From a virus, in IMG/VR virus record IMGVR_UViG_3300025769_000090, positions 11,240 to 75,239 of that record: a stretch of 64,000 nucleotides of DNA, one strand, 5' to 3'. Under the pieces are notes generated by a model that worked only from the letters and a program-made list of their open reading frames with translations, had not been told where the DNA came from and did not search any database. Positions 17,282 through 41,745 of this stretch are shown one piece after another (the first letter of the stretch is position 1; each line of letters opens with the position of its first letter). Made by a program: the position numbers and the translations under genes.

Positions 17282-18202
17282 ATGAAGGAGGATCGCCTTA
17301 TTTTTTTACTCGAAAGTCTTCTAGGAAAAAGCAAAAACGCACGCGGAGGCGATGAAGCTGTATTTAGTTGCCCAAATTGCAACCACCATAAGAAAAAATT
17401 AACATTTAACAAATACACACAAAAATTCCAATGTTGGGTGTGTGGCTTTAAGGGTGCTAGAGCAATACAACTTCTTAAATTTATTAAAGCTCCTTACAAC
17501 TCTTTCCAAGAGTTAAAAGATATTGATGCTCAATATAAGTTTAAATCTACTCATGTAGAAAAACCTAAAGATCAACTTCAATTACCTGAGGGATTTACCC
17601 CACTACTTAAAGGTAGAGGGTTAATCCGAGATAAAGCATGGAGTTATCTACAATCCCGCGGAGTTACTGCACAAGACGTAGTAAAATACAACATTGGATA
17701 TATTGAAGAAGGCAAATTAGCCAACTTTATAATCATACCAAGTTATGACAGACACGGATCCCTTAATTATTGGGTGGGTCGCTCGTTCGATCCGCAAGCT
17801 TACCACAAGCACAAGCTTCCGCCAACATCAAAAGATATTATTGGCTTTGACATGCTTTGTAACTTTAATATTCCTATTATCATTTGCGAAGGTGCCTTTG
17901 ACGCAATCGCAATCAAACGAAACGCCGTGCCCTTGTTTGGAAAACGAATCAGTAAATCACTCTACAAAGAACTTGTAAGAGGTAATGTAAAACAAATATA
18001 CCTTGCACTTGATCAGGATGCTATAAATGATTCACTTAAATATGCTAAGGAACTTATGGCATATGGTAAGGAAATATTTTTATTAGAACTTGAAGGTAAA
18101 GACCCAAGCGACTTAGGTTTTGACGCTATGACTCGCATATTGCAGAATGCAAAACCACTAACTTTCCAAGGATTAGTAGAAAAGAAAATCTTGTATCAAT
18201 AA
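17282..18202 (+). CDS. DNA primase (zinc finger + Toprim)
   Basis: CPNCNHH...CWVC zinc finger; ICEGAFDA and LALDQDA Toprim motifs; KDP. Confidence 0.9.
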   Translation: MKEDRLIFLLESLLGKSKNARGGDEAVFSCPNCNHHKKKLTFNKYTQKFQCWVCGFKGARAIQLLKFIKAPYNSFQELKDIDAQYKFKSTHVEKPKDQLQLPEGFTPLLKGRGLIRDKAWSYLQSRGVTAQDVVKYNIGYIEEGKLANFIIIPSYDRHGSLNYWVGRSFDPQAYHKHKLPPTSKDIIGFDMLCNFNIPIIICEGAFDAIAIKRNAVPLFGKRISKSLYKELVRGNVKQIYLALDQDAINDSLKYAKELMAYGKEIFLLELEGKDPSDLGFDAMTRILQNAKPLTFQGLVEKKILYQ

Positions 18203-18231: not shown

Positions 18232-21200
18232 ATGAAAATAGCTCTTTTACCAGGTGGATTTAAACCACCTCACTTAGGACATTATAATATGGCAAAATAT
18301 CTTGCAGATTTTGCTGATAAAGTTATAGTAAGAATTGGTCAAAAAGAAAGAGAAGGTATAGGAGCACCACTAGCTCTTGAAATTTGGAATCTTTATAAAG
18401 AATCTGATCCTGACCCTAGAGCTAAAAAACTTATAATAAGCGTTGCACAATCACCATCCCCCATAAAAGATGTATATGATTTTGTAGAAACTACTGCACC
18501 TGAAGGATCTACAGTTATCCTTGGTTTAGGTGAAAAAGATGCTACTGATGGACGTTATAATAGTATCCCTAAATTTGCAGAACCACGCAACATTAAGGCA
18601 GAAATAGAATTAGTACCACCTCAAGCTGGTGGTATTTCAGGTACTCGCATGCGTGAGATAGTTAAATCTAATAGTAAGATTGAATTTTTTAAATATATCC
18701 CAGAGTTCTTACCTGAAGAAATTAAAGAAGAAATTTGGACTAAACTTTTAGATACTACCCTACCTACTGAAGTAGATGAAATAATGGGTGGTACTATGAA
18801 TAGAGAAGAAATGGCTAAACATAATAAAAATATGCAAAAACTTCGCCAATTCCTTTCTAAACAAGGGGATCAAATGACCCAAATCCCTACTAAATTAACA
18901 AAAGGGTTAAGAAGAAAGTTATATGAAAAACTCGGAATCCAAAGAGGAACAATCGAAAGTGAAGTACAATTCTTATCTAGGGAAATACTTGAACTTTTTA
19001 AAGACAATATCGGAAAACCCTACGAAACCGGGGGTATAGAAGGGTATATTGAAGGGGGTGAAGTTGTATTAGAATATGAAATCGACCTTAAATTTATACC
19101 ATCCGACAGTATACCAGGATTTAGTTTTGATGCTTCTGCAGATGACGAAAACATCGAAATTGAAATAACCTATAACCCTAATTCATTCCCTGATGAATTT
19201 AATAGTCTTAATGCAGAATTAAAAGAAACTTTACGCCATGAAATTGAACATATAACTCAATTTGGGTTTGAACTTAAAGGTGGTTTTGAAGAATACAAAG
19301 GTTCTATCCCATTTCACAAGTATCTTCAATTATCACATGAAATTCCAGCGTTTGTTAGAGGGTTATACAAACGCGCTAAAGTTAAAAAAATGTCACTTAA
19401 AGATACTTTTAATGAATTTTTTGATGACTATATAGATAGCTTTAATAACCCCCAAGAAATAGAACAAGTTAGGACTGCGTGGTCTAATTGGGCACGTGAA
19501 AATTTACCCGATGCCCAATTAGACGAAAACTATCCACCGTATAAAGCAAATCAAGTTCAACAAACTAGATATAGGGCAAGTGATACATTTACAAATGATC
19601 CTAAAAAGGCTAAAAAATTAGGATATTTAGAAGATGATGCAGTAGATGAAGGAGATACCTATGAAAAAATGGCTGCTAAAGGTAAAAAAGCGGGCAACTT
19701 AAAACAGGGTACTGTCAGAAAACGTTTAAAAATTCCTAAAGGTGAAAAAATACCTCTTTCTTTAATTAATAAAGAATTATCTCGCCTTAAAAAAATGGAA
19801 AAGAGAAGTGCTAAAAATCAAAAATATTATAAAGCATTAACGTTAGCTAAAACCTTAAAAACTACAACCCATAAAGAAAATATAGATCCTAAAGCTCAAA
19901 AGAAGCATAAGGGTAAATCTGCTCCCTATGGTTCAGCTTATGAACCTGTAAAAGAAGGAGACCCTAAAATAGGTACAGGTAAAAAGCCTAAAGGATCAGG
20001 GCGTCGTTTATATACCGATGAAAATCCTAAAGATACTGTAAAAGTTAAATTTAGCACTAGGCAAGATATAGTTGATACTTTATCTAAAAAATCATTTAAG
20101 GCTAAATCTCACGCACGTCAATCACAAATTATTAACTTAATTCACCAACGTGTAAGAGCAGCATATAGTAGAGCTAAAGACCCAGCTGTTAAAAAACGCT
20201 TAAAATCTGGGTTAGATTATATTACTAAGCGTAAGGATGCATCAAAAAGAAAAACACAAAGGATGAGAAAAGAAGGATTATTTTCTAAAGAATGGTGGTT
20301 AGATGTAATCACTGAAGAAATATTAAGCGAAGGAGGTGCAGCTGGACACATGGCTCACCCATTTGATTTACCAAACGTTAAAACAGGTAAAGATTTAATT
20401 AAATCGTTTGAACAAGCTGCCGATAGTTTGAAAAAAACACCCGGTAGCGTCAAGATAGATGGCGTAAATGCGTCAATTAGATTGGTAAATTTCGACGGTA
20501 AACGTGAGTTCGCCATGGATCGCGGCTCAAAAAAGGCACTTGATTTACGTGGCGTTACTAAAGCTGACTTAGAAGATAGATTTGGTGCTGGTCACGGTAT
20601 GATTAAATCTGGTGGTGACGTATTAGACATATTTAATGCAGCTTTACCTTCAATCCAAGAAGAATTAAATGCATTAGGATTAATTGATGATCCTAATATT
20701 ATGTTTAATATGGAATACGTTAGTGGTAAATCTAATGTTCAAGACTATGGTAAAAATTTCTTAGCAATCCATGGCCTTTTAAAAGTAGAAACTAAAGAAG
20801 TACAAGGTGCTCGTAAAATGTTAACTAAAAGAATAACATCTGAAAAACTATTTGCACAAAGTGATATGGACGAGTTACTTAAAAAGTTAGAGCCATTTGC
20901 TAAAAAGAAAGGATTCGAAATATACGGTTCAGTACCTACAACATTTACTAAAGACCCTGATTTTAAATCTGCACTAAATACTAGATACACTATTGATACA
21001 GCTGAAGGTGATCAAACTAAAACATTAGCTCAATGGTTAAATGGTGTTACTAATATCCCCAAAACAGATCGCCTAAAAATAAACATTGAAGAAACCGACT
21101 CTATTAAAGACGTAGGTGCCCTAAGTAAACAAGTATACTTTGCTGTATTTGGTGGTGAAAATGTAGATTCACTATTTAGTGATGAACAAGAAGTTAATAA

Positions 21201-21396
21201 AGCTATCCAAGGAGCTACTACATATCTCGCAACTGAAAAATTAGGTGACGCAATATTAGATGTACTTGATTCGCCTATGGGTTCAGTTAATGATCATGAG
21301 GGTGTAGTTATTAGAGACGAGAAAATTTCCCCACGTCCATTTAAAATTACAGGTAAATTTATAACCGGAGGTGTATCCTCAGATTTCCAGAAATAA
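18232..21396 (+). CDS. Multi-module protein: HxGH nucleotidyltransferase + HEXXH zincin + basic modules + ligase-like KxDG domain
   Basis: PGGFKPPHLGH and ISGTRMR (cytidyltransferase-like); LRHEIEH at 19231-19251; C-terminal KIDG...E...EGVVIR...FKITG. Preceded by TATGTAT at 18207-18213. Confidence 0.8.
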   Translation: MKIALLPGGFKPPHLGHYNMAKYLADFADKVIVRIGQKEREGIGAPLALEIWNLYKESDPDPRAKKLIISVAQSPSPIKDVYDFVETTAPEGSTVILGLGEKDATDGRYNSIPKFAEPRNIKAEIELVPPQAGGISGTRMREIVKSNSKIEFFKYIPEFLPEEIKEEIWTKLLDTTLPTEVDEIMGGTMNREEMAKHNKNMQKLRQFLSKQGDQMTQIPTKLTKGLRRKLYEKLGIQRGTIESEVQFLSREILELFKDNIGKPYETGGIEGYIEGGEVVLEYEIDLKFIPSDSIPGFSFDASADDENIEIEITYNPNSFPDEFNSLNAELKETLRHEIEHITQFGFELKGGFEEYKGSIPFHKYLQLSHEIPAFVRGLYKRAKVKKMSLKDTFNEFFDDYIDSFNNPQEIEQVRTAWSNWARENLPDAQLDENYPPYKANQVQQTRYRASDTFTNDPKKAKKLGYLEDDAVDEGDTYEKMAAKGKKAGNLKQGTVRKRLKIPKGEKIPLSLINKELSRLKKMEKRSAKNQKYYKALTLAKTLKTTTHKENIDPKAQKKHKGKSAPYGSAYEPVKEGDPKIGTGKKPKGSGRRLYTDENPKDTVKVKFSTRQDIVDTLSKKSFKAKSHARQSQIINLIHQRVRAAYSRAKDPAVKKRLKSGLDYITKRKDASKRKTQRMRKEGLFSKEWWLDVITEEILSEGGAAGHMAHPFDLPNVKTGKDLIKSFEQAADSLKKTPGSVKIDGVNASIRLVNFDGKREFAMDRGSKKALDLRGVTKADLEDRFGAGHGMIKSGGDVLDIFNAALPSIQEELNALGLIDDPNIMFNMEYVSGKSNVQDYGKNFLAIHGLLKVETKEVQGARKMLTKRITSEKLFAQSDMDELLKKLEPFAKKKGFEIYGSVPTTFTKDPDFKSALNTRYTIDTAEGDQTKTLAQWLNGVTNIPKTDRLKINIEETDSIKDVGALSKQVYFAVFGGENVDSLFSDEQEVNKAIQGATTYLATEKLGDAILDVLDSPMGSVNDHEGVVIRDEKISPRPFKITGKFITGGVSSDFQK

Positions 21397-21731
21397 TGAA
21401 ATTAAAAGATATATTAAACGAAATTACAGGAACTAAAGTTAAGGTAAAAGATCTTACTTTTAATATGTTAAAAAAAGTTTTCTCCTCAAAATATCAAAAC
21501 CTAAGTAAAAGTGATACACGATCTATATATAAAGATCCTGTTTACTTACCCCAAGGTGATGGAAGTTCTAAAGGTATTATTGATGATGAGGCTTTAAAAG
21601 CTTATAAAGAATATATTATAAAAAGGGTGGGAAACGTTGAAATTACTTTAGATCCTACTAAAAATAAAGCCACTATAGAGGACCAAAATTTTAAAGATAG
21701 AGAATCTCGTATAGGAAAAGGTATTAATTAA
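21396..21731 (+). CDS. Hypothetical protein with MKLKDILNE N-terminal tag; putative internal head protein
   Basis: N-terminus nearly identical to that of 41389-41745. Confidence 0.7.
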   Translation: MKLKDILNEITGTKVKVKDLTFNMLKKVFSSKYQNLSKSDTRSIYKDPVYLPQGDGSSKGIIDDEALKAYKEYIIKRVGNVEITLDPTKNKATIEDQNFKDRESRIGKGIN

Positions 21732-21740
21732 ATAAAAGTT

Positions 21741-22334
21741 ATGTTAAATAAAGAATTTAAAAGAAAAGATGTAGAGCGTATGCGTAACCTTATTAAAGGT
21801 AACACAAATGAATCTGCAGAGTTACAAGTTGGTTATAAAACTAAAATAGAAGATCATAAAGAAGGTGATATTTGGGAAGAAGGTGGTAAAAAGTGGATTA
21901 TTAAAGATGGTATAAAACAAACCTATACTAAATTAGATAAAGTAAAAAAAGAAGCTATCTTACCACTATTTTGCCCCTGTTGTGGTACTTTAATGAAAAA
22001 ACGCAATGATGTTAAAATGTATAAAATACATAAAAAATGTTTTGATTGCGTAATTGATATGGAGGCTAAACTTAAGCTAGAAGGTAAATATGAAGAATAT
22101 GAACGTAATATAATAGCAGGTAATGCTGAAGCTTATTTAGATGATCTTGAACAATATTTATTAGAAGCAATTAATGAATCTAATACCCAATATGTTTCTG
22201 AAAGGGGTGAAGTTGAACGTTGGAAGGGGGGAATTGATAAAACCGAATTTCTTGGCCAAATAAAAACTAACTTTAAAGATTTTAGAAAACAAGTCGACGA
22301 TTATAAAAACAATAAAACAGATGATCAAACTTAA
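21741..22334 (+). CDS. Hypothetical zinc-finger protein
   Basis: CPCC...CFDC pairs. Confidence 0.75.
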   Translation: MLNKEFKRKDVERMRNLIKGNTNESAELQVGYKTKIEDHKEGDIWEEGGKKWIIKDGIKQTYTKLDKVKKEAILPLFCPCCGTLMKKRNDVKMYKIHKKCFDCVIDMEAKLKLEGKYEEYERNIIAGNAEAYLDDLEQYLLEAINESNTQYVSERGEVERWKGGIDKTEFLGQIKTNFKDFRKQVDDYKNNKTDDQT

Positions 22335-22935
22335 AGAACTTTTATTTGGCAAACCTGATTGCGATTGTGGTTGTGGTAATTGCGAAGATACTAAACTTAA
22401 CGAGGGTGTTAAAGTATCCGAAAATTTACAATATCACTTAAATAATAAAATCCCATTAGGTGAATCCGTATTTAGAATCAGTTCTAACGCTCATGTTAAA
22501 TTATTTGCAGAAACTAGAAAACTATGGGAAGCAAATAAAATAACCCTATCTGAAGCTGATGAATATTTCATGTCTACAGATGCAGGTCGTCAGGGGATGT
22601 ATGAAGGTAAATTAGTACCTCTTGATTTACCCTATATTATGGAAGCTACTAAAAAGAAAAAGAAAAACCCACCACTAAATAAACCAAAACGAGGGGGCCC
22701 TAAAGCATATTTTGTTTATGTTAGAAACCCTAAAACTAAAAAAATTAAAAAAGTTACTTTTGGTTCAGGTGGATTAAGAGCAAAATTAGGAAATAAAAAA
22801 GCCTCACAGGCATTTGCAGCAAGACATGATTGTAAAAATAAAAAAGACAGGACTAAAGCTAGTTACTGGAGTTGTAACCTTCCTAGATACCATAAGCAGT
22901 TGGGCCTTGCAACACCTGCCTCAACTTTCTGGTAA
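22321..22935 (+). CDS. Putative internal head protein with basic C-terminal module
   Basis: MIKLKELL start, CDCGCGNC, LNE and IME sites, Lys-rich ...KKVTFG...FAARHDC...YWSC module. Confidence 0.75.
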   Translation: MIKLKELLFGKPDCDCGCGNCEDTKLNEGVKVSENLQYHLNNKIPLGESVFRISSNAHVKLFAETRKLWEANKITLSEADEYFMSTDAGRQGMYEGKLVPLDLPYIMEATKKKKKNPPLNKPKRGGPKAYFVYVRNPKTKKIKKVTFGSGGLRAKLGNKKASQAFAARHDCKNKKDRTKASYWSCNLPRYHKQLGLATPASTFW

Positions 22936-23215
22936 GCCTTATACTGATATAATAGAGGCAGACGGCACAACAAGTCGTCTGTTTTCTGCTTCAACTAAGC
23001 CAGAAACTTTAAAGTGGCATATGGATGATGAAGATAGAATTATTACAGTTCTTGATAAAACTAATTGGCAATTTCAATTTGAAGATCAATTGCCGGTTCC
23101 TTTAAATAAGCCTATATTTATTAAGAGACATCAATGGCATCGTCTTATAAAAGGAGACGGTCCATTAATAATTAGTATCTATAAACATGCAAGAACGCAA
23201 ACTAACAAAACCTGA
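22826..23215 (+). CDS. Cupin-like small protein; start uncertain
   Basis: LKWHMDDEDR...WQFQFEDQLP...WHRLIKG His pattern; nearest usable in-frame ATG is 22826, inside the upstream gene. Confidence 0.6.
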   Translation: MIVKIKKTGLKLVTGVVTFLDTISSWALQHLPQLSGKPYTDIIEADGTTSRLFSASTKPETLKWHMDDEDRIITVLDKTNWQFQFEDQLPVPLNKPIFIKRHQWHRLIKGDGPLIISIYKHARTQTNKT

Positions 23216-23951
23216 GGCTAAAGCCAAAGAGCGTATAGTTAAAGATTTAAAGGGGGCTAAAGCTGACTTTAAAAAACGTTACGGTAAAGATGCTGAGGCC
23301 GTTATGTATGCTACTGCTACTAAACGTGCTAAAAAAGTAGCCGAAGATGGTTGTGGGTGTGGGTGTGGAGATAGTGAAATAAACCATACTATAAACGAAC
23401 TAATTGAAGATTTAGTATATGAAGAACTATGTAAGCGAGGTAAAGCTTATATAGCTGCTCGTAAAAGGGCGGGAGAAAAATCTTCTGCTTACTTATCTGG
23501 ACGTGCTGTAAAAGTATGTAAAGGACAAATGAAAGGAGCAGGTGGTAAAAGAAAAAAATCTTATAGAAAAAAAAGACGTAAAAACGAATCTTTATATAAT
23601 CAATTAAAACCACAAGTATTAAACCACTTAGAAGAATTATTTAATGATCCCTATTTTGCTATATTAGCAGAATACAATGTTTCTGAAGGTAGTATAGACG
23701 AAAGTTTAAAAAATTGGTTTAAAAAAGAAGATTGGGTTCGTATTGATACCCAAGGAAATATTGCTGGTAAGTGTGGTACAATGCCTAAAGGTAAAGCAAC
23801 ACAACGTTGTTTACCTCGTGCTAAAGCTAATTCACTTACTAAAGCCCAACGTAGAGCTACAGCTAGAAAAAAAGTTAGAGGTAGTAAAAAGGGTAAACAA
23901 TTTGTTAGAAACACTAAAAAAGCTAAAGTTAGCTTTAAAAAGAAAAAATAA
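23187..23951 (+). CDS. Highly basic multi-module protein; putative internal/DNA-binding
   Basis: Three Lys/Arg-rich modules separated by acidic linkers with VAE, VYE, VSE and IDE sites; GCGCGCG. Confidence 0.75.
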   Translation: MQERKLTKPEAKAKERIVKDLKGAKADFKKRYGKDAEAVMYATATKRAKKVAEDGCGCGCGDSEINHTINELIEDLVYEELCKRGKAYIAARKRAGEKSSAYLSGRAVKVCKGQMKGAGGKRKKSYRKKRRKNESLYNQLKPQVLNHLEELFNDPYFAILAEYNVSEGSIDESLKNWFKKEDWVRIDTQGNIAGKCGTMPKGKATQRCLPRAKANSLTKAQRRATARKKVRGSKKGKQFVRNTKKAKVSFKKKK

Positions 23952-23952
23952 T

Positions 23953-25296
23953 ATGAGCTTTTTAGACGAAAATATGGTAGTCACTGACGATCCTGCTAAG
24001 GCAGAAGCTTTAGCTAAAAAAGGGGTTATGGTTAAATTAGTAGATTCTGTTGATGAAAAACTTGATCCTGTAGGGAAAGAAGATGGTGATATAGATAATG
24101 ATGGTGATGTAGATAGTACTGATAAGTATTTAGCTAATAAAAGAAAAGCAGTAGCTAAAGCTATTATGAAATCTAAAAAAACTATTAAAAAAGAAACCCT
24201 TGAAGAAGGAATTTTGTCTAAATTATTAGGTGGTGCAGCTGTTCTTGCTGGACTTTTTGCACTAGGAAAAATCAATACTAGTGATTCTGAAATCCAAGCT
24301 CTACAAGCTAAATATGAACAAGCCCAAACAGAAGAGGAAAAAGATCAAATTAAAGATCAAATTACAGCTCGTTTGATTTTTTTAGATACTGGTAAAGAAC
24401 AAGTTAAAGAAGATGCTGTTGATACTATTGGGAAAGGATTAAAAAACCTAGATAACTTTTTAAGCAAAGCAGCTAGTGGCAGCGTAACCCTTACATCAAT
24501 AGTTAGAAGCATAGTTGATTCCTTTGACGACTTAGGAATTGAAAATATGAAAGATAGAGAGTTTGTAAAAGAGATTTTAGATAAAATAAAAGACGAAAAA
24601 AATCCAATAGTTCCTTTTGCAAAAGGTAGTGATGAGGAAAAAAAGTTTTTTGGTATTCTTGCTAAATCAAGTATGAATCAAAAGAATATAAAAATTATTG
24701 AAGATAAAATTAAGGAAATCCGCGATAAAAACTCAACTAATGAAGGTATGAAAAAAGATAAAGAAGAATTTAACTATAAAGCTCCTAAAGATAAAGATAA
24801 TGACGATATTAGGATAGATCCTGATACTGAATTTAAAATTGATTTGAAGCACCTTATCCAAAAACATATGAAAGAGGGTAAGTCTAAAGAAGATACAATT
24901 AAGTTTACTAAAGAATTAATGGCAAAACTTCACAATAAAGGTGAAGTTACAGTTGATGGTACTAAAATTGTATTTAAAGAAGCTAAAAAGAAAAAAAGTG
25001 GTTACATGGGCTATACTGAAATGGCCGAAGCTGATATTCCTATGGATAAGCCAATGGCACTACCAGAACCAGATGCACCTGATTACTTAGGTGATGATGG
25101 TATGGATTATGAAGGTGGAATGGCTAAAAGCCAAATGCTTAAAATGAAGAAATATGCTGTTGCTCTTTGTGATATGATTGAAGATGAATCACAATTAGAA
25201 TCATGGGTACAAGCTAAATTAACTAAAGCATCTGACTATATGTCCTCAGTTTTCCATTACTTAGATTATCAAAGATCTAAAATGAACGATGAATAA
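23953..25296 (+). CDS. Multi-module putative internal head protein
   Basis: ATG at 23953 (MSFLDE) preferred over TTG 23743. EF-hand-like DIDNDGDVDSTD, a hydrophobic helix after LEE, C-terminal EGGMAKSQM...WVQAKLTKA module. Confidence 0.75.
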   Translation: MSFLDENMVVTDDPAKAEALAKKGVMVKLVDSVDEKLDPVGKEDGDIDNDGDVDSTDKYLANKRKAVAKAIMKSKKTIKKETLEEGILSKLLGGAAVLAGLFALGKINTSDSEIQALQAKYEQAQTEEEKDQIKDQITARLIFLDTGKEQVKEDAVDTIGKGLKNLDNFLSKAASGSVTLTSIVRSIVDSFDDLGIENMKDREFVKEILDKIKDEKNPIVPFAKGSDEEKKFFGILAKSSMNQKNIKIIEDKIKEIRDKNSTNEGMKKDKEEFNYKAPKDKDNDDIRIDPDTEFKIDLKHLIQKHMKEGKSKEDTIKFTKELMAKLHNKGEVTVDGTKIVFKEAKKKKSGYMGYTEMAEADIPMDKPMALPEPDAPDYLGDDGMDYEGGMAKSQMLKMKKYAVALCDMIEDESQLESWVQAKLTKASDYMSSVFHYLDYQRSKMNDE

Positions 25297-25735
25297 TTTA
25301 ACCGAACAAAAACTAAGACGCAAAATACGTCAAATCCTTAAAGAGGAAAGAGAGTATCAATTACGTCAATTATCCCCTGGGGCACATGATGCTTTAGGCC
25401 CAGGTACCTTAGGTATCCCCCCATCTGCTGTAGTTGACGTTAAAATCATTAAAGCACCTAAACCAATTTTTAAGTGTTTTCTTGATAATGGTCAGGCATT
25501 TAACTTGATCGATAACGGAGAATACATGCAAGCTGACATTAATCGTATTTTATTTGATTTAGATAGAGACGATGATATTAATGGTGCAAAATATGAGCTT
25601 AAAAAGCTAATGCAACAAGGTAGCATTAAATCAGATGAGGAGGAAGAAGAAACTGATACCTCATCTGCTGAACCCGACTTCGCTACTGACGAACCCGCAG
25701 ATGAACCCGTAGACGAACCTGAAGGAGATGAATAA
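25289..25735 (+). CDS. Hypothetical protein with LTE / RQILKEE N-terminus and acidic tail
   Basis: Overlapping ORF chain. Confidence 0.72.
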   Translation: MNNLTEQKLRRKIRQILKEEREYQLRQLSPGAHDALGPGTLGIPPSAVVDVKIIKAPKPIFKCFLDNGQAFNLIDNGEYMQADINRILFDLDRDDDINGAKYELKKLMQQGSIKSDEEEEETDTSSAEPDFATDEPADEPVDEPEGDE

Positions 25736-26123
25736 TAATCCTGAATTCCAACAAGCCCTAACAGGTATCTATAAAGATGGTGTTAAAAAATTTAATATCC
25801 GTACTACTCCTAAAGTAGTACTACGTAAAGATGCTGAAAATGGAGCAATGACTTTAGGCCGTACTGCATATTATGATCCTAACGATTTAACTATTGTTCT
25901 TTATACATCAAATCGCCACCCTAAAGATATACTTAGATCATTTGCTCACGAATTAATTCACCATGTACAAAATGAACGTGGCGATTTAAATTTAGGAGAT
26001 TCTAGTGATCCCCAATATGCTCAAAATGATGACCATTTAAGAAAAATGGAAATGGAAGCATATCTAGAAGGTAATATGCTTATGAGAGATTTTGAAGACA
26101 ATTTTAAGTATCAACAAGAATAA
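25728..26123 (+). CDS. Small zincin-like metallopeptidase
   Basis: RSFAHELIHHVQ (HEXXH) plus downstream EMEAY. Confidence 0.75.
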   Translation: MNNNPEFQQALTGIYKDGVKKFNIRTTPKVVLRKDAENGAMTLGRTAYYDPNDLTIVLYTSNRHPKDILRSFAHELIHHVQNERGDLNLGDSSDPQYAQNDDHLRKMEMEAYLEGNMLMRDFEDNFKYQQE

Positions 26124-29186: not shown

Positions 29187-30311
29187 ATGAATAAAGCTGA
29201 TATCAAGCAAATTATATTTGAAGAAATTGAAGCCGCTATTAAGGAGCTAAACGAAAACATGTCTCCTGAAGATTTAGCAGCAGATTCTCGTCCTGAAGAA
29301 GACGACATTACACCTCCAGGTATCGAAGATATGTCACCAGATCCTATATTTGGTGCTGATCCTTCATATGTTGAAGAGGAAGAATTATCTGAGATGCCCC
29401 GCACCTCAAATAAATTCAAACTCAGCCAGGATGCTGATATGAAGCAAGTCCTCCAATTTATGCAACGCGTAAATAACAGACTTAAAACATTCAAATCACC
29501 AGGACAAAAGCGCCCTAAAAAGCGTTTTACACCTGAAGAAATGAAATCGTTAGCAACAGCAATGCTCAACCCAGAAGGATTTACTTCTAAAGACGTAATT
29601 GCTGTTACCTCATATAACAGCCCCGCTCAAGCAAATAAATTTTTAAAAGCGCTTGAAATGAAGGGCTTAATTACATTAACCTCACAACTTAAAAAAGCAC
29701 AAGAACCAGCTCGCGATCCTGATGCCCCTGAAACCAGAGGTAGAAAACGCAGAGATGCTGAATTTGATATGTCAGATGATCCTACAATGATGGACTTCGG
29801 GGATTTTGATGATTTAGATTTAAGTGACCCACTAGCAGAAACTAAAGCAACCATGACAAACTTAGAAAAGTACATTAAACAGCAAATCAAAGAAGCTAAA
29901 AATCCATTAGCTAAAAAGATGAAAGAAATTGAAAATCAAGGACGCGTTGCAGCGCTTGAAACTAAATTAGCTGCTATTGCCGAAATGATTGAAGAAACAG
30001 AAGGTCGTTTAACTCGTATTGACGAAGATAACGAGTTTAGAGACATGATGGATAAAAACGCTGTTAAAGAAGTTCGTAAGCAACTTAAAGAACTTGAAAA
30101 AGCTAAAGGTAAGCTTGAAAAAGAAAGAGCTAAATTAGAAGGTAAAGTCGAAAAAAAAGAAGTAGTTGATGAAGACTTGCCCGTAGCTGAAGACGCAGTA
30201 GAAGAAGATGCTATAGACGCAGCTATTGATGAAGTTGAATTAGAAGAAGATAACTTTGCACTTAATGAATCAGTTAAGCGTATGCAAAAATTAGCTAACC
30301 TAAAAGGCTAA
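29187..30311 (+). CDS. Putative prohead core/internal protein
   Basis: Acidic linkers with LNE, LSE, LAE and IKE sites; C-terminal RMQKLANL matches scaffold RFQKLANI. Confidence 0.7.
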   Translation: MNKADIKQIIFEEIEAAIKELNENMSPEDLAADSRPEEDDITPPGIEDMSPDPIFGADPSYVEEEELSEMPRTSNKFKLSQDADMKQVLQFMQRVNNRLKTFKSPGQKRPKKRFTPEEMKSLATAMLNPEGFTSKDVIAVTSYNSPAQANKFLKALEMKGLITLTSQLKKAQEPARDPDAPETRGRKRRDAEFDMSDDPTMMDFGDFDDLDLSDPLAETKATMTNLEKYIKQQIKEAKNPLAKKMKEIENQGRVAALETKLAAIAEMIEETEGRLTRIDEDNEFRDMMDKNAVKEVRKQLKELEKAKGKLEKERAKLEGKVEKKEVVDEDLPVAEDAVEEDAIDAAIDEVELEEDNFALNESVKRMQKLANLKG

Positions 30312-30373: not shown

Positions 30374-31021
30374 ATGGCAGACATTAAAGCAATTATAAAA
30401 CAAGGGATATATAAAATAATTTCTCCTAGTGGAAGAATATATATAGGTCAAACTATAGATATAGCAAGGAGATTTAAAGAATATAAAAATTTAAGGTGTA
30501 AAAGCCAGCCTAAACTTTACAATTCATTAAAAAAATATGGGCCTGATAAGCATATTTTTGAAATATTAGAAGAGTGTCCTACAAACTTTCTTTTAGAAAG
30601 AGAAATTTTTTACAAAAAATTATTTAATAGTGTAGAAAAGGGATTAAATTGTGAACTATATGATATAGGTAGTGGTGGTCCTAGGTCTAAAGAAACTATA
30701 GCTAAAATTTCTAAAAGTCAAAAAGGAATTCCAAAGAAAGGTGGATGGCATCATAGTAATGAATCCAAAAAACTTAAAAGCGAATTAGCTAAGGGTAAAC
30801 CTAAACCTAAAGGATTTGGAAAAAAAGTAGCCCAAGCTAAAGCTAATAACCCTAATTTAGGGGATAGTTACAAAAAAAGAATCATAGACCTTAATACTGG
30901 AAAAATCTATAATAGTTGCACAGAAGCAGCACAAGATAATAACATAAGTCCCTCTATTATTAGTAATAGTTTAAATGGACTTTATAAAAAATCTAAATGG
31001 AATTTTAAACACTATGGCTGA
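30374..31021 (+). mobile_element. Free-standing GIY-YIG homing endonuclease gene
   Basis: GIYKIISPSGRIYIGQT, NUMOD3-like repeats (SKETIAKISKSQKG; HSNESKKLKSELAKGK), C-terminal NUMOD1-like IYNSCTEAA; first 10 codons mimic the terL start. Confidence 0.85.
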
Positions 31022-35588: not shown

Positions 35589-35729
35589 ATGCCAAGAAAA
35601 ATTAACGCATTTGAATTTATTAATGATGGACATAAAGTGTCCCGTCCTGGTGTACATGCTAAAACTAAGCATAGTAACCATAAAAATTCAAAAAATTATA
35701 AAAAAACCTATAGAGGACAAGGACGATGA
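35589..35729 (+). CDS. 46-aa basic protein ending YRGQGR (absent from the ORF track)
   Basis: MPRKINAFEFINDGHKVSRPGVHAKTKHSNHKNSKNYKKTYRGQGR*; fills the gap exactly, and its TGA overlaps the protease ATG. Confidence 0.8.
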   Translation: MPRKINAFEFINDGHKVSRPGVHAKTKHSNHKNSKNYKKTYRGQGR

Positions 35730-36331
35730 AACAATTACTTATAGAACACATGCCATTTAAAGTAGATAAACTCTTAGTTGAGCAATCTATTAAAGAGAAT
35801 AAACCACTTAGAGTAGGTGGTATTATCCAAAGAGCTGGTGTTAAAAACCATAATGGTAGAATCTATGAGCAAGAAATTCTTGAAAGAGAAATTAAAAAAT
35901 ACATTGATGGTCCTGTTAAAGAAAAAAGAGCTTTAGGTGAATTAGACCACCCAGATTCTTCCGTTATTAATTTAAATAATGTATCCCATAATATAGTAGA
36001 AATTACTATGAAAGGAAATGATGTACATGGTGTTATAGAAATACTAACAACACCCGCGGGGAATATTTTAAAAGAGTTATTCCGTTGTGGTGTTACAGTA
36101 GGAATATCTTCTAGAGGTATGGGTTCAGTAGAAGAAAATTCAGATGGAATATTAATGGTTCAAGAAGATTTTGATCTTCTTTGTTTTGATATGGTATCAA
36201 CCCCATCAACCCCTGGTGCTTATATGTCCCCCATGAATGAAGGAGTAAACACCCAGGTTAAAAATTATACTAAAGTACATAACGTTATTCGCGATATTAT
36301 CTGCAATAACACAGGTATGTGTCAGTGTTAA
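35726..36331 (+). CDS. Prohead protease (T4 gp21-like)
   Basis: NHNGRIY, ALGELDHP, VSH, GISSRGMGS, FDMVSTPS. Confidence 0.93.
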   Translation: MKQLLIEHMPFKVDKLLVEQSIKENKPLRVGGIIQRAGVKNHNGRIYEQEILEREIKKYIDGPVKEKRALGELDHPDSSVINLNNVSHNIVEITMKGNDVHGVIEILTTPAGNILKELFRCGVTVGISSRGMGSVEENSDGILMVQEDFDLLCFDMVSTPSTPGAYMSPMNEGVNTQVKNYTKVHNVIRDIICNNTGMCQC

Positions 36332-36699: not shown

Positions 36700-37731
36700 A
36701 TGGCTAAAGAAATTTTAAAAGAGGCTATTGCCGACGCAAAAGCCGTTAGAGAAGTTGCTTTAGAAAATGCTAAAATGGCATTAGAAGAAGCATTCGACTC
36801 TAAAATCAAAAACATGCTTTCTGCTAAATTAGCAGAGGAGCTTGAAGAAGACGTCGAACTCGAAGAAGAGTACATTGAGGAGGAAGCGGAAGCTACCGAC
36901 GAAATGTACGGTTCTAAAAAGCGCATGATGCAAGACGACGACGACGATGTTAAAAAAGAGGAAGTTGAGCTCGAAGAAGAACTCGAAGAAGACCTCGATG
37001 AAGAAATCAACCTTGATGAACTCATGGCTGAACTTGAAGAAATGTCTATATACGATGAAGATGAAGATGGAGACATGAAAAAAGAAGAAGCTGAGTTAGA
37101 AGAGGGAGAAGACCAACTCGAAGAAGAAGCGGAGCCGGTCGATGAAAATGTAAAGGATGCTATGGATGCCATTAAAAAAGCAGCCAAAGAAGCAGGCAAA
37201 ACCGTTACTGATTACCTATTAGGTAAAAAATTCATTGATTCTGGTATCACTACTACTAAGAGAGAGTCTGTTGATTTCGACATTGATTCTTTGGTTTCTG
37301 AAATTGAATCTGAACTAGAAGAAGGTAAGAAAAAAGATGAAAAAAAAGACGATGAGGATAAAAAGATGAAAGAAGACCTTAATGAGGCTCTCGAAACTGT
37401 TGATTCTCTTAAGTCTACTATTTCTGAAATGAACCTTCTCAACAGCAAACTCCTCTACTGCAACAAACTCTTCAGAGCTAACTCACTAACAGAAGCTCAG
37501 AAAGTAAAGGTGGTTGACGCCTTGGACAAAGCATCTACAGCAGGTGAAGCTAAATTGGTATTTGAAACACTTCAAGAATCATTTGACTTTACTGGTGTAG
37601 AAAAAAGAGCGATTAAGGAAGGTTTAGCACGTGCTTCAAAGCCCGTCGGAACTGCTCCTAAAAATGTTATAACGGAATCCGTTGACGAGACAGTGTCAAG
37701 ATTCCAAAAACTTGCAAACATTAACAAATAA
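36700..37731 (+). CDS. Prohead scaffolding/core protein
   Basis: Very acidic coiled coil between protease and capsid genes; many LEE, LDE and LNE sites. Confidence 0.85.
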   Translation: MAKEILKEAIADAKAVREVALENAKMALEEAFDSKIKNMLSAKLAEELEEDVELEEEYIEEEAEATDEMYGSKKRMMQDDDDDVKKEEVELEEELEEDLDEEINLDELMAELEEMSIYDEDEDGDMKKEEAELEEGEDQLEEEAEPVDENVKDAMDAIKKAAKEAGKTVTDYLLGKKFIDSGITTTKRESVDFDIDSLVSEIESELEEGKKKDEKKDDEDKKMKEDLNEALETVDSLKSTISEMNLLNSKLLYCNKLFRANSLTEAQKVKVVDALDKASTAGEAKLVFETLQESFDFTGVEKRAIKEGLARASKPVGTAPKNVITESVDETVSRFQKLANINK

Positions 37732-37742
37732 TTTTAGAAAAC

Positions 37743-39440
37743 ATGAATGTTAACTCATTATTAGAGGGCGCTTCACCACTTCAACACCAACAAGCTGAAT
37801 CAGTTAAGTTGGCAGGTAAGTGGGAAAAGTCCGGTCTCTTAGAGGGTCTTAATGCCCACGAGAGCGAAAAAGCTAACATGGCTGTTCTCCTCGAGAACCA
37901 AGCCAGACAGTTAGTAAACGAAGCTAACCAGGTTGGTACTGTTACTAGCATTACTACTGGTCAAAGTGAAGCATGGGCGGGCGTTGCTCTCCCATTGGTA
38001 AGAAGAGTATTCGGTGAAATCGTTGCTAAGGACCTCGTGTCTGTTCAACCAATGAACTTACCTTCAGGTCTCATCTTCTACCTAGATTTCCAATATGGTC
38101 AAGCTCAGCCTGGATTTGCTGAAAACGATAGCCTTTCAGCTGCGTCTACTGACAAGACTAAAACAGAATTACCATCGGTAGGACAAGGTAAAGGTCTTTA
38201 CGGTGCAGGTAGATTCGGTTACTCAATTAACGAAGTAGATTCTGCTGCCCTTGCAATTACAGGTGGTCTTGCGGGTGACAATACACTTACTGGTGTAGGC
38301 ACACTTGTTGCTGCAGGTACAGCTTCTTTTGCCCCATTAACTGCTGCTGATTCAGCATCTGTAAACTTTGATACTGAATTTATTAATTCTGTTGCATTAA
38401 CTACTATTGACCAAATTAGAGTTCACAAAGACTCTCTTACTGACTTTGATCCTGAGGGTATTAGAGCATTTGAGGTATTAAATGGTACTGCAAACGTAAC
38501 CGTTTATAACCAATTTACTGCTTTTGACGGTACTTACATTGATTTCTTTGTTGATAACAGTGATGGTACTTTAGATTTTGATGATAAAGACGCTGATCTT
38601 GTTATTAGATACCAAAAAGGTCCAGATAACCTCAACGACAGAGGTGATTTCCAAGACGAAACAGCTCCAGCAGCAAGCACAGTATCTGCTCTTGATATCC
38701 CAACTATCGATGTTAAACTCAACAGTTCAACTGTTACAGCGAAAACTCGTAAGTTAAAGGCTCAGTGGACACCAGAATTCGCTCAGGATTTGAATGCTTA
38801 CCATAGCATTGATGCTGAAGCGGAATTAACGTCTATCCTTTCTGAGTACATCTCAATGGAAATTGACCTCGAATTACTCGACATGTTGATTAGAAACGCT
38901 GATACTACTAACCACTGGAGTGCTAAGGTTGGTAAAGAAGTTCTTGACACAGGTGCTGAAACTACTACTAGTGACCAGTACTACACTAAGATGTCTTGGT
39001 TCCAGACTTTGGGTGTTAAACTCCAGTCTGTTAGCAACACTATTCACCAGAAGACCCTTAGAGGCGGTGCAAACTTCCTCGTTGTTTCTCCAACTGTAAG
39101 CACAGTCTTAGAATCTATTCCTGGATTTGCTGCTGACTCACCCGGTGATTCTAACAAGTACGCAATGGGTGTTCAAAAGATTGGTGCTATTAACTCACGT
39201 TACACTGTCTACAAGAACCCATACATGACTGAAAACGTAATCTTAATGGGCTATAAGGGTAACCAGTTCCTCGAAACAGGTGCTGTATTTGCTCCATACA
39301 TCCCATTAATCATGACTCCCCTCGTGTACGATCCTGTATCGTTCACCCCAAGAAAGGGTATCATGACTCGTTACGCTAAGAAAATGGTAAGACCTGACTT
39401 CTATGGTAAGGTATTCTGCCACGATTTGAACTTAGTCTAA
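37743..39440 (+). CDS. Major capsid protein (T4 gp23-like)
   Basis: LLENQ, LPLVRR, VSVQPM..P.GLIF, AKTRKLKAQWTPEFAQDL, APYIPL, GIMTRY. Confidence 0.97.
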   Translation: MNVNSLLEGASPLQHQQAESVKLAGKWEKSGLLEGLNAHESEKANMAVLLENQARQLVNEANQVGTVTSITTGQSEAWAGVALPLVRRVFGEIVAKDLVSVQPMNLPSGLIFYLDFQYGQAQPGFAENDSLSAASTDKTKTELPSVGQGKGLYGAGRFGYSINEVDSAALAITGGLAGDNTLTGVGTLVAAGTASFAPLTAADSASVNFDTEFINSVALTTIDQIRVHKDSLTDFDPEGIRAFEVLNGTANVTVYNQFTAFDGTYIDFFVDNSDGTLDFDDKDADLVIRYQKGPDNLNDRGDFQDETAPAASTVSALDIPTIDVKLNSSTVTAKTRKLKAQWTPEFAQDLNAYHSIDAEAELTSILSEYISMEIDLELLDMLIRNADTTNHWSAKVGKEVLDTGAETTTSDQYYTKMSWFQTLGVKLQSVSNTIHQKTLRGGANFLVVSPTVSTVLESIPGFAADSPGDSNKYAMGVQKIGAINSRYTVYKNPYMTENVILMGYKGNQFLETGAVFAPYIPLIMTPLVYDPVSFTPRKGIMTRYAKKMVRPDFYGKVFCHDLNLV

Positions 39441-39529: not shown

Positions 39530-40195
39530 ATGGCTAAACAAAATATCGAAAAAACCCCACCTAAGGGTAATATTAGGTTTTCAATATCCTTATCAGAAGA
39601 ACAAAAAGCTGCTAAAACTGAAATTTTAAAACACCCTTTTAATTTTGTAGTAGGTAAAGCAGGTAGTGGTAAAACATTATTAGCTGTACAAGTAGCTTTA
39701 GATCAAGTATTTAAACGACAATTTAATAAAATTATTATTACAAGGCCTACTATTTCAACTGAAGATAATGGATTTCTTCCGGGATCCGAACGTGAAAAAA
39801 TGGAACCGTGGTTAGTACCTATTCGTTCTAATATGCGAAAAGTTTATAATAAACCTGACATTTTAGAAAAAATGGAAAAAGAAGAAAAAATTGAACTTGT
39901 ATCACTTGCTCATTTTAGAGGTAGAACATTTGATAACGCTGTAGTAATAGTAGATGAATATCAAAATCTAACTAAATCTCAATTAGCTATGTGTATAGGT
40001 AGATTAGGTAAAGATAGTAAAATGGTATTTTGTGGTGATTCTTATCAAATTGATTTAAGAGATAAACAACATTCTGCTTACCATGACATGGCAAAATTAG
40101 CTAACTCAGAATTTGTATTTAAAACTGTATTAACAGATTCACACAGACATGCAGCTATTGATGATTTATTAGAACTTTTAAATGGTTACCATTAA
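39530..40195 (+). CDS. phoH: PhoH-family ATPase
   Basis: GKAGSGKT, GFLPG, FRGRTF, IVDEYQN, GRLG, GDSYQID. Confidence 0.93.
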   Translation: MAKQNIEKTPPKGNIRFSISLSEEQKAAKTEILKHPFNFVVGKAGSGKTLLAVQVALDQVFKRQFNKIIITRPTISTEDNGFLPGSEREKMEPWLVPIRSNMRKVYNKPDILEKMEKEEKIELVSLAHFRGRTFDNAVVIVDEYQNLTKSQLAMCIGRLGKDSKMVFCGDSYQIDLRDKQHSAYHDMAKLANSEFVFKTVLTDSHRHAAIDDLLELLNGYH

Positions 40196-40234: not shown

Positions 40235-41389
40235 ATGGCAACTATTTCTATTTGGCCCGGCTCCGCTTCATTTAATGATACTACAAATCCAACCCCTTTT
40301 GGTTTTTATGACGCCGATAGTGATTTTACTTCTTCGGCTGATCAAGTAGCAACTTGGTGTGCTCAAAGATTAGGGTATCCTATAGTAGATATTGAACTAC
40401 AAGCAGTAAACTTTTTTACAGCTTTTGAGGAAGCTGTAACTACATATGCCCAATATGTCTACCAATATAAAATTATAGAAAATATTGGAACCTTTGAAGG
40501 ATCTACTACAGGTAGTAATTTAAACGATCAATATGTACAACCTAACTTAGGCAACACCGTAGCTATTACTGAACAATATGGAACAGAGGCAGGTACTGGT
40601 GGAAATATAACATATAAAACTGGTAGTATTAATATAACTGCAGGTAAACAAAAATATTCTTTAGATAATTTATTTACTAATGTTAGTGAATCAGGCAATA
40701 ATATAGAAATTAAAAAAATCTACCATTATGCACCTGCGGCAATTGTAAGGTACTTTGACCCATATGCAGGTACAGGTACAGGTATACAATCGTTAATGGA
40801 AACATTTGGTTTTGGTAATTTTTCACCTGGCGTAAACTTTATGTTAATGCCTACTTATTATGATATATTAAAAGTTCAAGCTATTGAATTTAATGATCAA
40901 ATAAGAAAATCAGCATATAGTTTTGAATTATTAAATAATGACCAATTAAGAATCTTCCCTATACCTAAAAGAAGCGAAACTTTATATTTTGACTATGTAG
41001 TTAAAAGTGATAGAAATAACCCTATTAGGAATACTGATACTGGTTTAGTTACTAATGTATCTAATGTTCCATATACTAATATAAGTTATACTACTATTAA
41101 TACCCCGGGCAGGCAGTGGGTATTCCGTTATACGTTAGCATTAGCTAAAGAGATGTTAGCTAGTGTAAGAGGTAAATATTCAACAGTTCCTATTCCTGGT
41201 TCTGAAGTAACTACTAATGCTGGAGATTTAAGAAGTGAAGCAGCTTCTGAAAAAACTGCTCTTATTGACGAACTTAAATCAATGCTTGAAGAATCTTCAA
41301 GAGTTAAATACATGGAAAGAGACGCCCAAATAGCACAAAATGCTCAAGATACTTTTACTAAAGTACCCTATCCAATATATATCTACTAA
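40235..41389 (+). CDS. Neck/head-tail adaptor protein (gp13-like)
   Basis: RLGYPIVDIEL and WVFRYTLALAKEML...RGKY...PG. Confidence 0.8.
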   Translation: MATISIWPGSASFNDTTNPTPFGFYDADSDFTSSADQVATWCAQRLGYPIVDIELQAVNFFTAFEEAVTTYAQYVYQYKIIENIGTFEGSTTGSNLNDQYVQPNLGNTVAITEQYGTEAGTGGNITYKTGSINITAGKQKYSLDNLFTNVSESGNNIEIKKIYHYAPAAIVRYFDPYAGTGTGIQSLMETFGFGNFSPGVNFMLMPTYYDILKVQAIEFNDQIRKSAYSFELLNNDQLRIFPIPKRSETLYFDYVVKSDRNNPIRNTDTGLVTNVSNVPYTNISYTTINTPGRQWVFRYTLALAKEMLASVRGKYSTVPIPGSEVTTNAGDLRSEAASEKTALIDELKSMLEESSRVKYMERDAQIAQNAQDTFTKVPYPIYIY

Positions 41390-41745
41390 TGATTAAATTA
41401 AAAGACATATTAAACGAAGTTATTCAACTATATTCTGTTGATGTAGTGATAGTATCTGATAAGGATGCAAACTTCACTGATATATTAGATGGAATGAGGG
41501 CCACTAGAAAAGTTACTATCATTAATGCTAACACTTCAGATGAATTAGAACTAAAAAACCGAAAAAGAACAGATGGGAAAGCAGTAAGAACAGCTACGTT
41601 AAAATTTGCATCAGGAAAAGATCCAAAACAAGATTTAGAATTTTTAAAAACTACTATGTTAAGTAGTGATAAAGGTGATCCTGAAATGAGGATTAAAGGG
41701 TTACAAGCAATAATTTTTAAACCCGAATCCTTAACTCGACTCTAA
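41389..41745 (+). CDS. Hypothetical protein with MIKLKDILNE tag
   Basis: Tag shared with 21396-21731; coupled to neighbours. Confidence 0.72.
   Translation: MIKLKDILNEVIQLYSVDVVIVSDKDANFTDILDGMRATRKVTIINANTSDELELKNRKRTDGKAVRTATLKFASGKDPKQDLEFLKTTMLSSDKGDPEMRIKGLQAIIFKPESLTRL

Follow-up and report, generated by a model that had tools for sequence, protein, structure and literature searches.

In this study we analyzed a 64,000-nucleotide (nt) window of viral DNA (positions 11,240 to 75,239 of IMG/VR record IMGVR_UViG_3300025769_000090), which is part of a 75-kb contig with an estimated completeness of ~50%, and focused on a group of open reading frames (ORFs) at positions 18232 to 26123, here called the island. 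The large ORFs of this island encode strings of modules, and the joints between the modules coincide with the tripeptide [LIV]-x-Glu ([LIV]xE). In phage T4, the prohead protease gp21 cuts after L/I-x-E (PMC9026906). We propose, with a probability of roughly 0.6, that ORF 18232-21396, ORFs 22321 and 23187 and, less clearly, ORF 23953 encode cargo polyproteins that are cut in the prohead by the S77 protease of this phage and enter the next host along with the DNA. The steps of cleavage, packaging and ejection are our inference, and so are the roles of the pieces.

Module joints coincide with the [LIV]xE motif

The largest ORF of the island (18232-21396) encodes a chain of 1054 amino acids (aa) that we divided into modules A to H (Table 1). 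The sites named for it in the original prediction, VDE (18772), LYE (18919), LDE (19519), VDE (19642), VKE (19948) and ITE/LSE (20308-20331), were all found at these coordinates. Their mere number carries no signal, as the ORF contains 16 [LIV]xE tripeptides compared to 16.4 expected from its composition. Because of this, we replaced the frequency argument by a positional test.

A scan of viral contigs yielded 30 related loci (designated by L numbers), including 20 full-length homologues of 693 to 1343 aa. In their alignment whole modules are inserted, deleted, replaced, reordered or free-standing, which shows the large ORFs to be strings of separable modules. A junction was called only where two BLAST segments adjoin in one protein and are separated in the other, which gave 54 distinct contexts; these are variants of ~20 independent joint types and are partly related by descent. 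Calling junctions from the multiple-sequence alignment was set aside as too noisy (281 contexts), and so was the use of the raw ends of BLAST high-scoring segment pairs, in which the signal was diluted (0.34 versus 0.14).

[LIV]xE was found at most 3 residues away from 44 of the 54 junctions, compared to a mean of 8.4 and a maximum of 18 in 1000 permutations of the positions, and a Glu was present at 52 of them. The control motifs [LIV]xD, [LIV]xK, [LIV]xQ, [AGST]xE and [FYWM]xE showed no excess at the same junctions, and [KR]xE was marginal at most (11 versus 6.7 in the null). The coincidence of junction and motif is far outside the null expectation despite the partial dependence of the contexts. 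The 1054-aa ORF thus has no motif excess by overall frequency and a clear one by position, and the breakpoints of reshuffled and free-standing modules do fall at these sites, which the original prediction had proposed as a check.

Analyzed by family, the motif was present at 14/17 junctions for ORF 22321, 6/17 for ORF 23953 and 3/9 for ORF 23187, although the last family, inspected by eye, has the same design as the large chain. The tripeptides listed earlier for these ORFs (LNE and IME in 22321; VAE, LEE and IDE in 23187; VKE in 23953) are all present; the claim that such junctions divide the proteins held well for 22321 and weakly for the other two.

The same picture emerged from a structural model of the whole 1054-aa chain, generated with AlphaFold2 from a shallow alignment of 37 sequences (mean predicted local distance difference test score [pLDDT], 72). 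Residues 1-177, 239-431 and 706-1048 form confident domains, and segments 178-194, 208-238, 432-490, 544-605 and 678-705 are of low confidence. All seven junction-type sites (residues 181-183, 230-232, 430-432, 471-473, 573-575, 693-695 and 698-700) fall in predicted linkers with a pLDDT below 50, and all nine other [LIV]xE sites fall in confident domains, so that domain boundaries and motif coincide in the way that had been suggested as a check.

Selection acts on the peptide

The junction sites vary in sequence among the relatives while retaining the motif. The site at residue 181 reads IDE, VQE, VDE, IKE, LNE, IGE or IEE, and the site at residue 698 reads LNE, LYE, LKE, IYE, ISE, LTE or INE. 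The intradomain sites 252, 279 and 330, located in domain C, are mostly lost in relatives. At the joints all four Gly and all four Ala codons and four to five Leu codons are used, the commonest codon reaching a frequency of 0.39 to 0.64 for Gly, Ala and Leu. Since synonymous codons vary freely, selection acts on the peptide and not on a DNA site.

The modules and their rearrangement

Module A contains the HxGH motif (GGFKPPHLGHY) within a Rossmann-like nucleotidyltransferase fold. When the full-length model was submitted to Foldseek and VIA-align, this module dominated both match lists. VIA-align superimposed model residues 1-179 on 3h05_B (Z score, 14.7; root mean square deviation, 2.4; 151 residues aligned), and Foldseek returned PPAT/NaMNAT matches (E value, 1.8e-5) with many NMNAT and PPAT entries among them; the Pfam match to CTP_transf_like (E value, 0.0045) remained under the curated cutoff. 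On the basis of the predicted structure, we assign module A to the NMN/NaMN adenylyltransferase-PPAT superfamily.

Module C carries an invariant R103-H-E-x-E-H108 and E138 in 17 sequences, and its model (pLDDT, 83) shows a helix, a four-stranded sheet and the HExxH helix. It is possibly a zincin-like metallopeptidase. Fold searches with Foldseek and VIA-align gave no significant match (best Z score, 5.3), Pfam gave no peptidase match, and a PDB sequence search was also empty.

Module H contains the invariant K741-I-D-G744. In VIA-align the module gave middling scores to T4 Rnl1 (9do4_B; Z score, 7.8) and NgrRnl (5cot_A; 7.6), and the Pfam match to RNA_ligase (E value, 0.021) was under the cutoff. 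A PDB profile search with module H returned nothing, nor did a PDB sequence search with the whole chain. The predicted structure thus suggests only a moderate resemblance to T4 RNA ligase 1.

The short pieces of the chain have isoelectric points (pI) of 10.2 to 10.4, and those of ORFs 22321 and 23187 reach pI 10.7 to 11.6. Taken together, the modules correspond to the kit that had been foreseen (enzymes, very basic peptides, an EF-hand-like peptide and a hydrophobic helix): we identified an NMNAT-fold enzyme, an HExxH domain, an RNA-ligase-like domain, peptides with a pI of 10.2 to 11.6, a DxDxDG peptide and a hydrophobic helix.

Rearrangements affect nearly every module. Directly after module A, three different cassettes are found in L007, L021 and L025, all of them lying between [LIV]xE sites. 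Module B is fused straight to module F in L019 at KLYE/D (slashes mark joints), and module C is missing from L019 and L025. Module D occupies three alternative places in relatives, namely after C, E or F, and module E is relocated or missing in L008, L014, L015 and L017-L020. Inserted cassettes in L007, L021, L025, L018, L013 and L022 carry the motif at both ends. These include a HAD-like domain in L025 and a DUF6973 domain in L007, with [LIV]xE on either side, and a copper-binding domain of the plastocyanin/azurin family in L018 (L018:11996-12280; Pfam E value, 3.7e-17), which lies between IKE/ and VDE/. A plastocyanin domain in such a polyprotein would be an odd cargo for a capsid. The F/G joint, RMRKE/G, is one at which the motif is broken.

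Smaller chains of the island behave similarly. Five relatives of ORF 22321 have cassettes of ~90 aa inserted after LPYIME or LSE, and its C-terminal module matches PHROG 7595. Modules of ORF 23187 occur inside the large polyprotein of L011 and also as free-standing 83-aa genes. In two chains, Cys-Gly clusters (CxCGCGxC or GCGCGCG; 22321-22400 and 23340-23370) lie just past a leader or a site, and they are kept yet variable in relatives (CDCGCGNCE, CGCGCDDCN, GGCGCSACQ).

Leaders of free-standing modules and of head proteins

Modules that stand alone as genes begin with leaders of 9 to 15 residues that end in [LIV]xE. The ligase-like module of L030 starts with GTG behind a GAGGAG ribosome-binding site and reads MNFSEYIELINE/GGAAGH; further examples are MNFCGYMELITE/, MNLIKILLSE/ and MNLYEYINRTQIISE/, and the CKRG module of ORF 23187, as an 83-aa gene, starts with MNNILRE/YIRQYLDE/. 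ORFs 21396 and 41389 share the leader MKLKDILNE/ with at least four unrelated sequences in relatives, and this leader also occurs internally in L013 and in P0111 (SKMKLKDLIVE/GGAGGH in the latter). Overall, leaders ending in the motif are present in ORFs 21396, 41389, 25289 and 23953, in the free-standing ligase-like and CKRG modules and in other modules, and are absent from the 1054-aa chain, which starts straight at its enzyme domain, and from ORF 23187.

The five recognizable head-core proteins of the window all share this leader style (MNVNSLLE/, MAKEILKE/, MKQLLIE/, MNADQLRSLIRE/ and MNKADIKQIIFE/). The capsid-targeting sequence (CTS) of T4 is ~10 residues long, its residues 8 and 10 being determinants of processing (PMC9026906), and is common to otherwise unrelated internal proteins (PMC9026906, PMC3012670). 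By analogy, the leaders of the free-standing modules appear to match the T4 CTS type.

A gp21 homologue is indeed encoded in the window, as had been predicted for position 35726: the protein and T4 gp21 share 40% identity across 149 residues (E value, 3e-29). Moreover, BLASTP aligned VNE60/A61 of the major capsid protein with LTE65/A66 of T4 gp23, the maturation site. The gp23 propeptide consists of 65 residues and is removed (PMC5694885). Apart from ORFs 22321 and 23187, a comparable enrichment in [LIV]xE was observed for the scaffold, the protease and two head-core proteins.

Occurrence in other phages and in metagenomes

The ligase-like module has ~980 homologues. In 98 of 101 fetched loci, [LIV]xE is located directly ahead of it, in 17 tripeptide variants and after N-terminal extensions of 13 to 1136 aa. 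For module F, a HMMER search of 1.8 billion representatives gave 538 matches, at any position and in proteins of 135 to 1389 aa. Where module F was internal (138 public-metagenome representatives with 123 different upstream contexts), the motif lay within ±3 residues of its start in 94 sequences (null, 14.9; maximum, 26) and within -8 to +2 in 117 (null, 21.8; maximum, 35), and control motifs were flat. In podophage HTVC033P, module F stands alone as a 96-aa gene that has no leader.

The cultured Flavobacterium phage immuto contains the same modules in recombined form, with joints of the same type. Its gp088 holds both HExxH domains, one of them homologous to ORF 25728, along with the HxGH domain, and its gp079 is a fusion of the ORF 23953 and ORF 25289 counterparts, the core of the latter being attached to the gp079 C terminus after VLE/. 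Finally, of 10 records containing the ligase-like module, 8 had an identifiable S77 protease, a complete 174-kb genome among them; the other 2 records are fragments with a completeness of ~35%.

Proposed function and alternative explanations

In this scheme, each chain joins, in one reading frame, modules that fold on their own or are disordered, and each module ends in [LIV]-x-Glu. Precursors would enter the core of the assembling prohead, free-standing modules by means of their 9- to 15-residue N-terminal leaders of the T4 CTS type. The gp21-type S77 protease would then cut after each exposed Glu while trimming the capsid protein and degrading the scaffold. The freed enzymes (the NMNAT-fold nucleotidyltransferase, the RNA-ligase-like protein and the HExxH domain) and the very basic peptides would stay with the DNA, and the products would be delivered to the next host. 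We propose that the leader-tagged ORFs 21396, 25289 and 41389 are part of the same cargo system as the chains. Because every module has its own cleavable joint, genes could fuse, split and exchange modules at the joints without loss of function, which would explain the extreme mosaicism. More tentatively, the [LIV]xE leader may be a portable "address plus cut here" cassette with which hundreds of uncultured T4-like phages build changing kits of DNA-delivered proteins, including NAD-related and RNA-repair-type enzymes that could pre-empt abortive-infection defenses. Such phages would possess a natural combinatorial system for protein delivery rather than a handful of internal proteins; we hold this broader view with less confidence than the first.

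Several points weigh against delivery in the capsid. The 1054-aa chain has no leader that would take it into the prohead. The neighbors of the island are a primase, a FAD oxidoreductase and a kinase-like gene, with no structural genes among them, and ORFs 21741 and 25728, which lie inside the island, do not carry the signature. Some modules of relatives, namely the plastocyanin and HAD-like domains, look metabolic rather than like injected effectors. The junction statistics are weak for the 23187 and 23953 families, and the joint that follows module F ([LM]xKE/G or N) and one joint of L014 (QFE/N) break the motif. The LxE ahead of the ligase-like module is invariant and could belong to the domain rather than be a cleavage site, and the two HExxH domains offer another possible protease. 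In literature searches of incomplete coverage, we found no virion proteome and no biochemical data for this phage or its relatives. The label of a capsid-cargo island given in the original prediction therefore stands as far as the motif, the gp21 homologue and the leaders are concerned, and is called into question by the leaderless chain, the nonstructural neighbors, the two ORFs without signature and the metabolic-looking modules.

Some of these features would fit chains that are cytoplasmic multidomain proteins or polyproteins and are never packaged. The motif would then mark a preferred flexible linker, or the S77 protease or a protease of the host would cut it elsewhere than in the capsid, and polyproteins would serve the phage as a way to express auxiliary enzymes. 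The missing leader of the 1054-aa chain, the surrounding replication and nucleotide-metabolism genes, the metabolic-type modules (plastocyanin, HAD-like, NMNAT fold) and the location of immuto gp088 between an exonuclease and a deoxyribonucleotidase all agree with this explanation. However, a mere linker needs no hydrophobic-x-Glu, and [LIV]xD, [AGST]xE and the other controls are not enriched. Furthermore, the maturation site of the capsid protein bears the same motif, the short cleavable-type leaders of the free-standing modules resemble those of head proteins of the same genome, and T4 gp21 acts inside the prohead, which is established knowledge for T4 (PMC9026906). We thus consider it unlikely that the chains remain unpackaged.

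Alternatively, the chains could be polyvalent proteins (Iyer et al. 2017) that are processed by their own zincin-like HExxH domains, either module C or ORF 25728. Such processing has been predicted (PMC5512222), module C has the invariant RHExEH with a downstream Glu and a topology that fits the published description of the peptidase, and a second HExxH protein is conserved nearby. A feature search of the ESM Atlas gave LPD23 (score, 0.88) as a lead only; hmmscan against Pfam matched none of the LPD families of PMC5512222. On the other hand, L019, L025 and many ligase-containing chains that lack module C retain the junction motif, which makes self-processing less likely. The peptidase assignment was not confirmed by Pfam or fold search, and ORF 25728 itself has no [LIV]xE site. 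A Glu at P1 with an aliphatic P3 is the documented gp21-type rule, and we know of no such requirement for zincins. In T4, processing is blocked by an Asp at P1 (PMC9026906). Altogether, self-processing appears improbable.

Lastly, the exchange of modules at the joints might suggest that the motif is the by-product of a conserved DNA sequence for module recombination, devoid of any role as a peptide, but the residues at the joints differ (VDE, LYE, LDE, VKE, LSE and others), and we give this explanation hardly any credence; a fixed DNA recombination sequence was rejected as synonymous codons are free at and around the joints.

Genomic setting

The capsid protein is 55% identical to its counterpart in Flavobacterium phage immuto, and more remote matches were found in Microcystis phage Mel-JY01 and Rhodothermus phage RM378. 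These matches identify the phage, which is uncultured and marine, as a distant T4-like myophage. At the nucleotide level, the island had no match among isolated phages. All genes of the window are on the plus strand, and the island is located upstream of the head module, between a DNA primase gene (17282-18202) and the genes for a FAD oxidoreductase and a kinase-like protein (the features are listed in Table 1).

In the head module, a PhoH-like ATPase gene (39530-40195; PHROG 170; E value, 1.3e-62) lies between the capsid-protein and head-tail adaptor genes. A GIY-YIG homing endonuclease gene (30374-31021; PHROG 314; E value, 1.4e-29) directly precedes and overlaps the large terminase gene (30975-32606), and the two proteins have near-identical starts (MADIKAIIKQ and MADIKDIIKK). 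The ORF assigned to the scaffold had no match in a PHROG search. The C-terminal RMQKLANLKG of the 29187 ORF resembles RFQKLANINK of the scaffold, with [FM]QKLAN in common, and this QKLAN-type motif could function as a scaffold- or capsid-binding tag. LSE/ and LAE/ sites flank a basic core in the 29187-30311 protein. A QKLAG motif is internal in L004 and L008, where it is followed by ITE/ and more sequence.

The T4 late-promoter motif TATAAATA was not enriched in the window and was found ahead of none of the island genes. A sigma-70 scan gave counts under the shuffled expectation, so no promoter class could be assigned to the island genes. PADLOC gave no useful result on the island ORFs.

Among the neighboring ORFs, 25728 is a candidate alternative protease judging by its HExxH motif. 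ORF 23953 is homologous to parts of immuto gp079. In the ~250-nt gap between ORFs 22321 and 23187 we noticed a conserved frame (22814-23215, +1 relative to 22321) reading GKPYTDIIE/ADGTTSRLF...HQWHRLIKGDGPL..., with 50 to 91% identity in 17 relatives. It lacks an ATG start; the sole start candidate is a TTG 24 nt ahead of the 22321 stop, and with this start the leader would have 16 residues and end in IIE/. This frame is probably a real gene.

Table 1. Features of the island and of the head genes in the window (a slash follows the residue after which a cut is proposed or aligned)
Feature	Position	Strand	Basis or remarks
1054-aa modular polyprotein, modules A to H	18232..21396	+	ORF; homologues differ by whole modules
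Module A: predicted HxGH nucleotidyltransferase, NMNAT/NaMNAT/PPAT fold, ends VDE183	18232..18780	+	fold match and motif
Module B: 49-aa basic peptide, pI 10.4, ends LYE232	18781..18927	+	module comparison among relatives
Module C: HExxH domain, ends LDE432	18928..19527	+	invariant motif
Module D: 41-aa YPPYKANQV...KKLGYLE peptide, ends VDE473	19528..19650	+	module comparison
Module E: 102-aa basic module, pI 10.2, ends VKE575	19651..19956	+	module comparison
Module F (basic, GDPKxGTGKKPKGSGRRLYTDE) and WW-helix linker G, ends LSE700	19957..20331	+	HMMER, module comparison
Module H: predicted RNA-ligase-like nucleotidyltransferase (KxDG), starts GGAAGHMAHPFD	20332..21393	+	fold match and motif
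111-aa ORF with portable leader MKLKDILNE/	21396..21731	+	leader recurs in relatives
204-aa modular protein, main junction IME108 (nt 22636-22644)	22321..22935	+	7 sites versus 1.8 expected
254-aa string of basic Cys-containing modules	23187..23951	+	VAE53, LIE74, LEE150, IDE172; 8 sites versus 2.5 expected
447-aa mosaic protein: DxDxDG peptide, hydrophobic helix, conserved C-terminal domain	23953..25296	+	mosaic among relatives
148-aa ORF, leader ...IRQILKE/, acidic tail	25289..25735	+	leader and immuto comparison
131-aa free-standing HExxH protein, DUF6647-like	25728..26123	+	Pfam DUF6647 E value 0.0052, under cutoff
Second scaffold-like head-core protein, 374 aa, Glu-rich	29187..30311	+	18 sites versus 8.4 expected; leader MNKADIKQIIFE/
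Terminase	30975	+	head module
Portal	32637	+	head module
T4 gp21-type prohead serine protease	35726..36331	+	Pfam Peptidase_S77 (PF03420) E value 2e-30; PHROG 207 E value 3e-56
Scaffold protein, called by position and composition	36700..37731	+	25 [LIV]xE versus 13.2 expected; 19.5% Glu
Major capsid protein	37743..39440	+	60-residue propeptide with LLE/G, LLE/G, LLE/N, VNE60/A
Head-tail adaptor	40235	+	head module
118-aa ORF with leader MIKLKDILNE/	41389..41745	+	adjoins head-tail adaptor gene

Significance and comparison with known systems

Should cleavage take place in the head, a single gene would supply the virion with seven or eight different proteins, and the capsids of abundant marine phages would carry a richer and faster-evolving cargo than the T4 model suggests. 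For annotation, a simple sequence rule would place domain boundaries and predict mature products in viral "dark matter," and for evolution, it would represent a route by which phage genes fuse and split at no cost. The NMNAT-like and RNA-ligase-like proteins would be candidate injected enzymes against NAD-depleting or tRNA-cutting defenses. The cultured relative immuto, which has the same architecture, makes the question directly testable. In literature searches of incomplete coverage we found no published description of freely shuffled multimodule chains with what appears to be a head-protease site at each joint.

In phiKZ, 201phi2-1 and SPN3US, a diverged gp21-like protease cleaves many head-internal proteins on the C-terminal side of Glu (PMC5694885, PMC9026906). 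Some of these proteins receive several cuts, as proposed here, and targeting involves long propeptides (PMC5694885, PMC9026906). Unlike in the present chains, however, the motif of these giant phages, which belong to another lineage, is S/A/G-x-E, and processing consists mainly of propeptide removal and not of the separation of shuffled modules.

Polyvalent proteins combine 2 to 15 disparate domains per polypeptide in variable architectures (PMC5512222), and the chains of the island do likewise. Both are long and extremely mosaic and contain an HExxH domain, and DNA-linked delivery with proteolytic release of domains was predicted there as it is here (PMC5512222). In contrast, processing by the proteins' own zincin was proposed for polyvalent proteins, for which no conserved interdomain cleavage motif was described (PMC5512222), whereas the present joints carry a prohead-protease motif that is kept in chains without the HExxH module.

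The closest parallel concerns the internal proteins IPI, IPII and IPIII and Alt of T4. No similarity of the island ORFs to these proteins was found with Pfam, PHROGs or PADLOC. Nevertheless, both systems have a gp21-type S77 protease and an aliphatic-x-Glu rule, which is the cleavage rule in T4 (PMC9026906, PMC3012670), leaders of ~10 residues that end in the motif, one leader common to unrelated cargos, a hypervariable locus and small basic cargo. They differ in that the large chain is leaderless and the present system is known from sequence alone, and in that many cargos are joined here in one frame (the 1054-aa chain has seven to eight modules), each joint has a site, and modules move between chains and positions. 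The chains would thus extend the internal-protein system of T4 to polyproteins.

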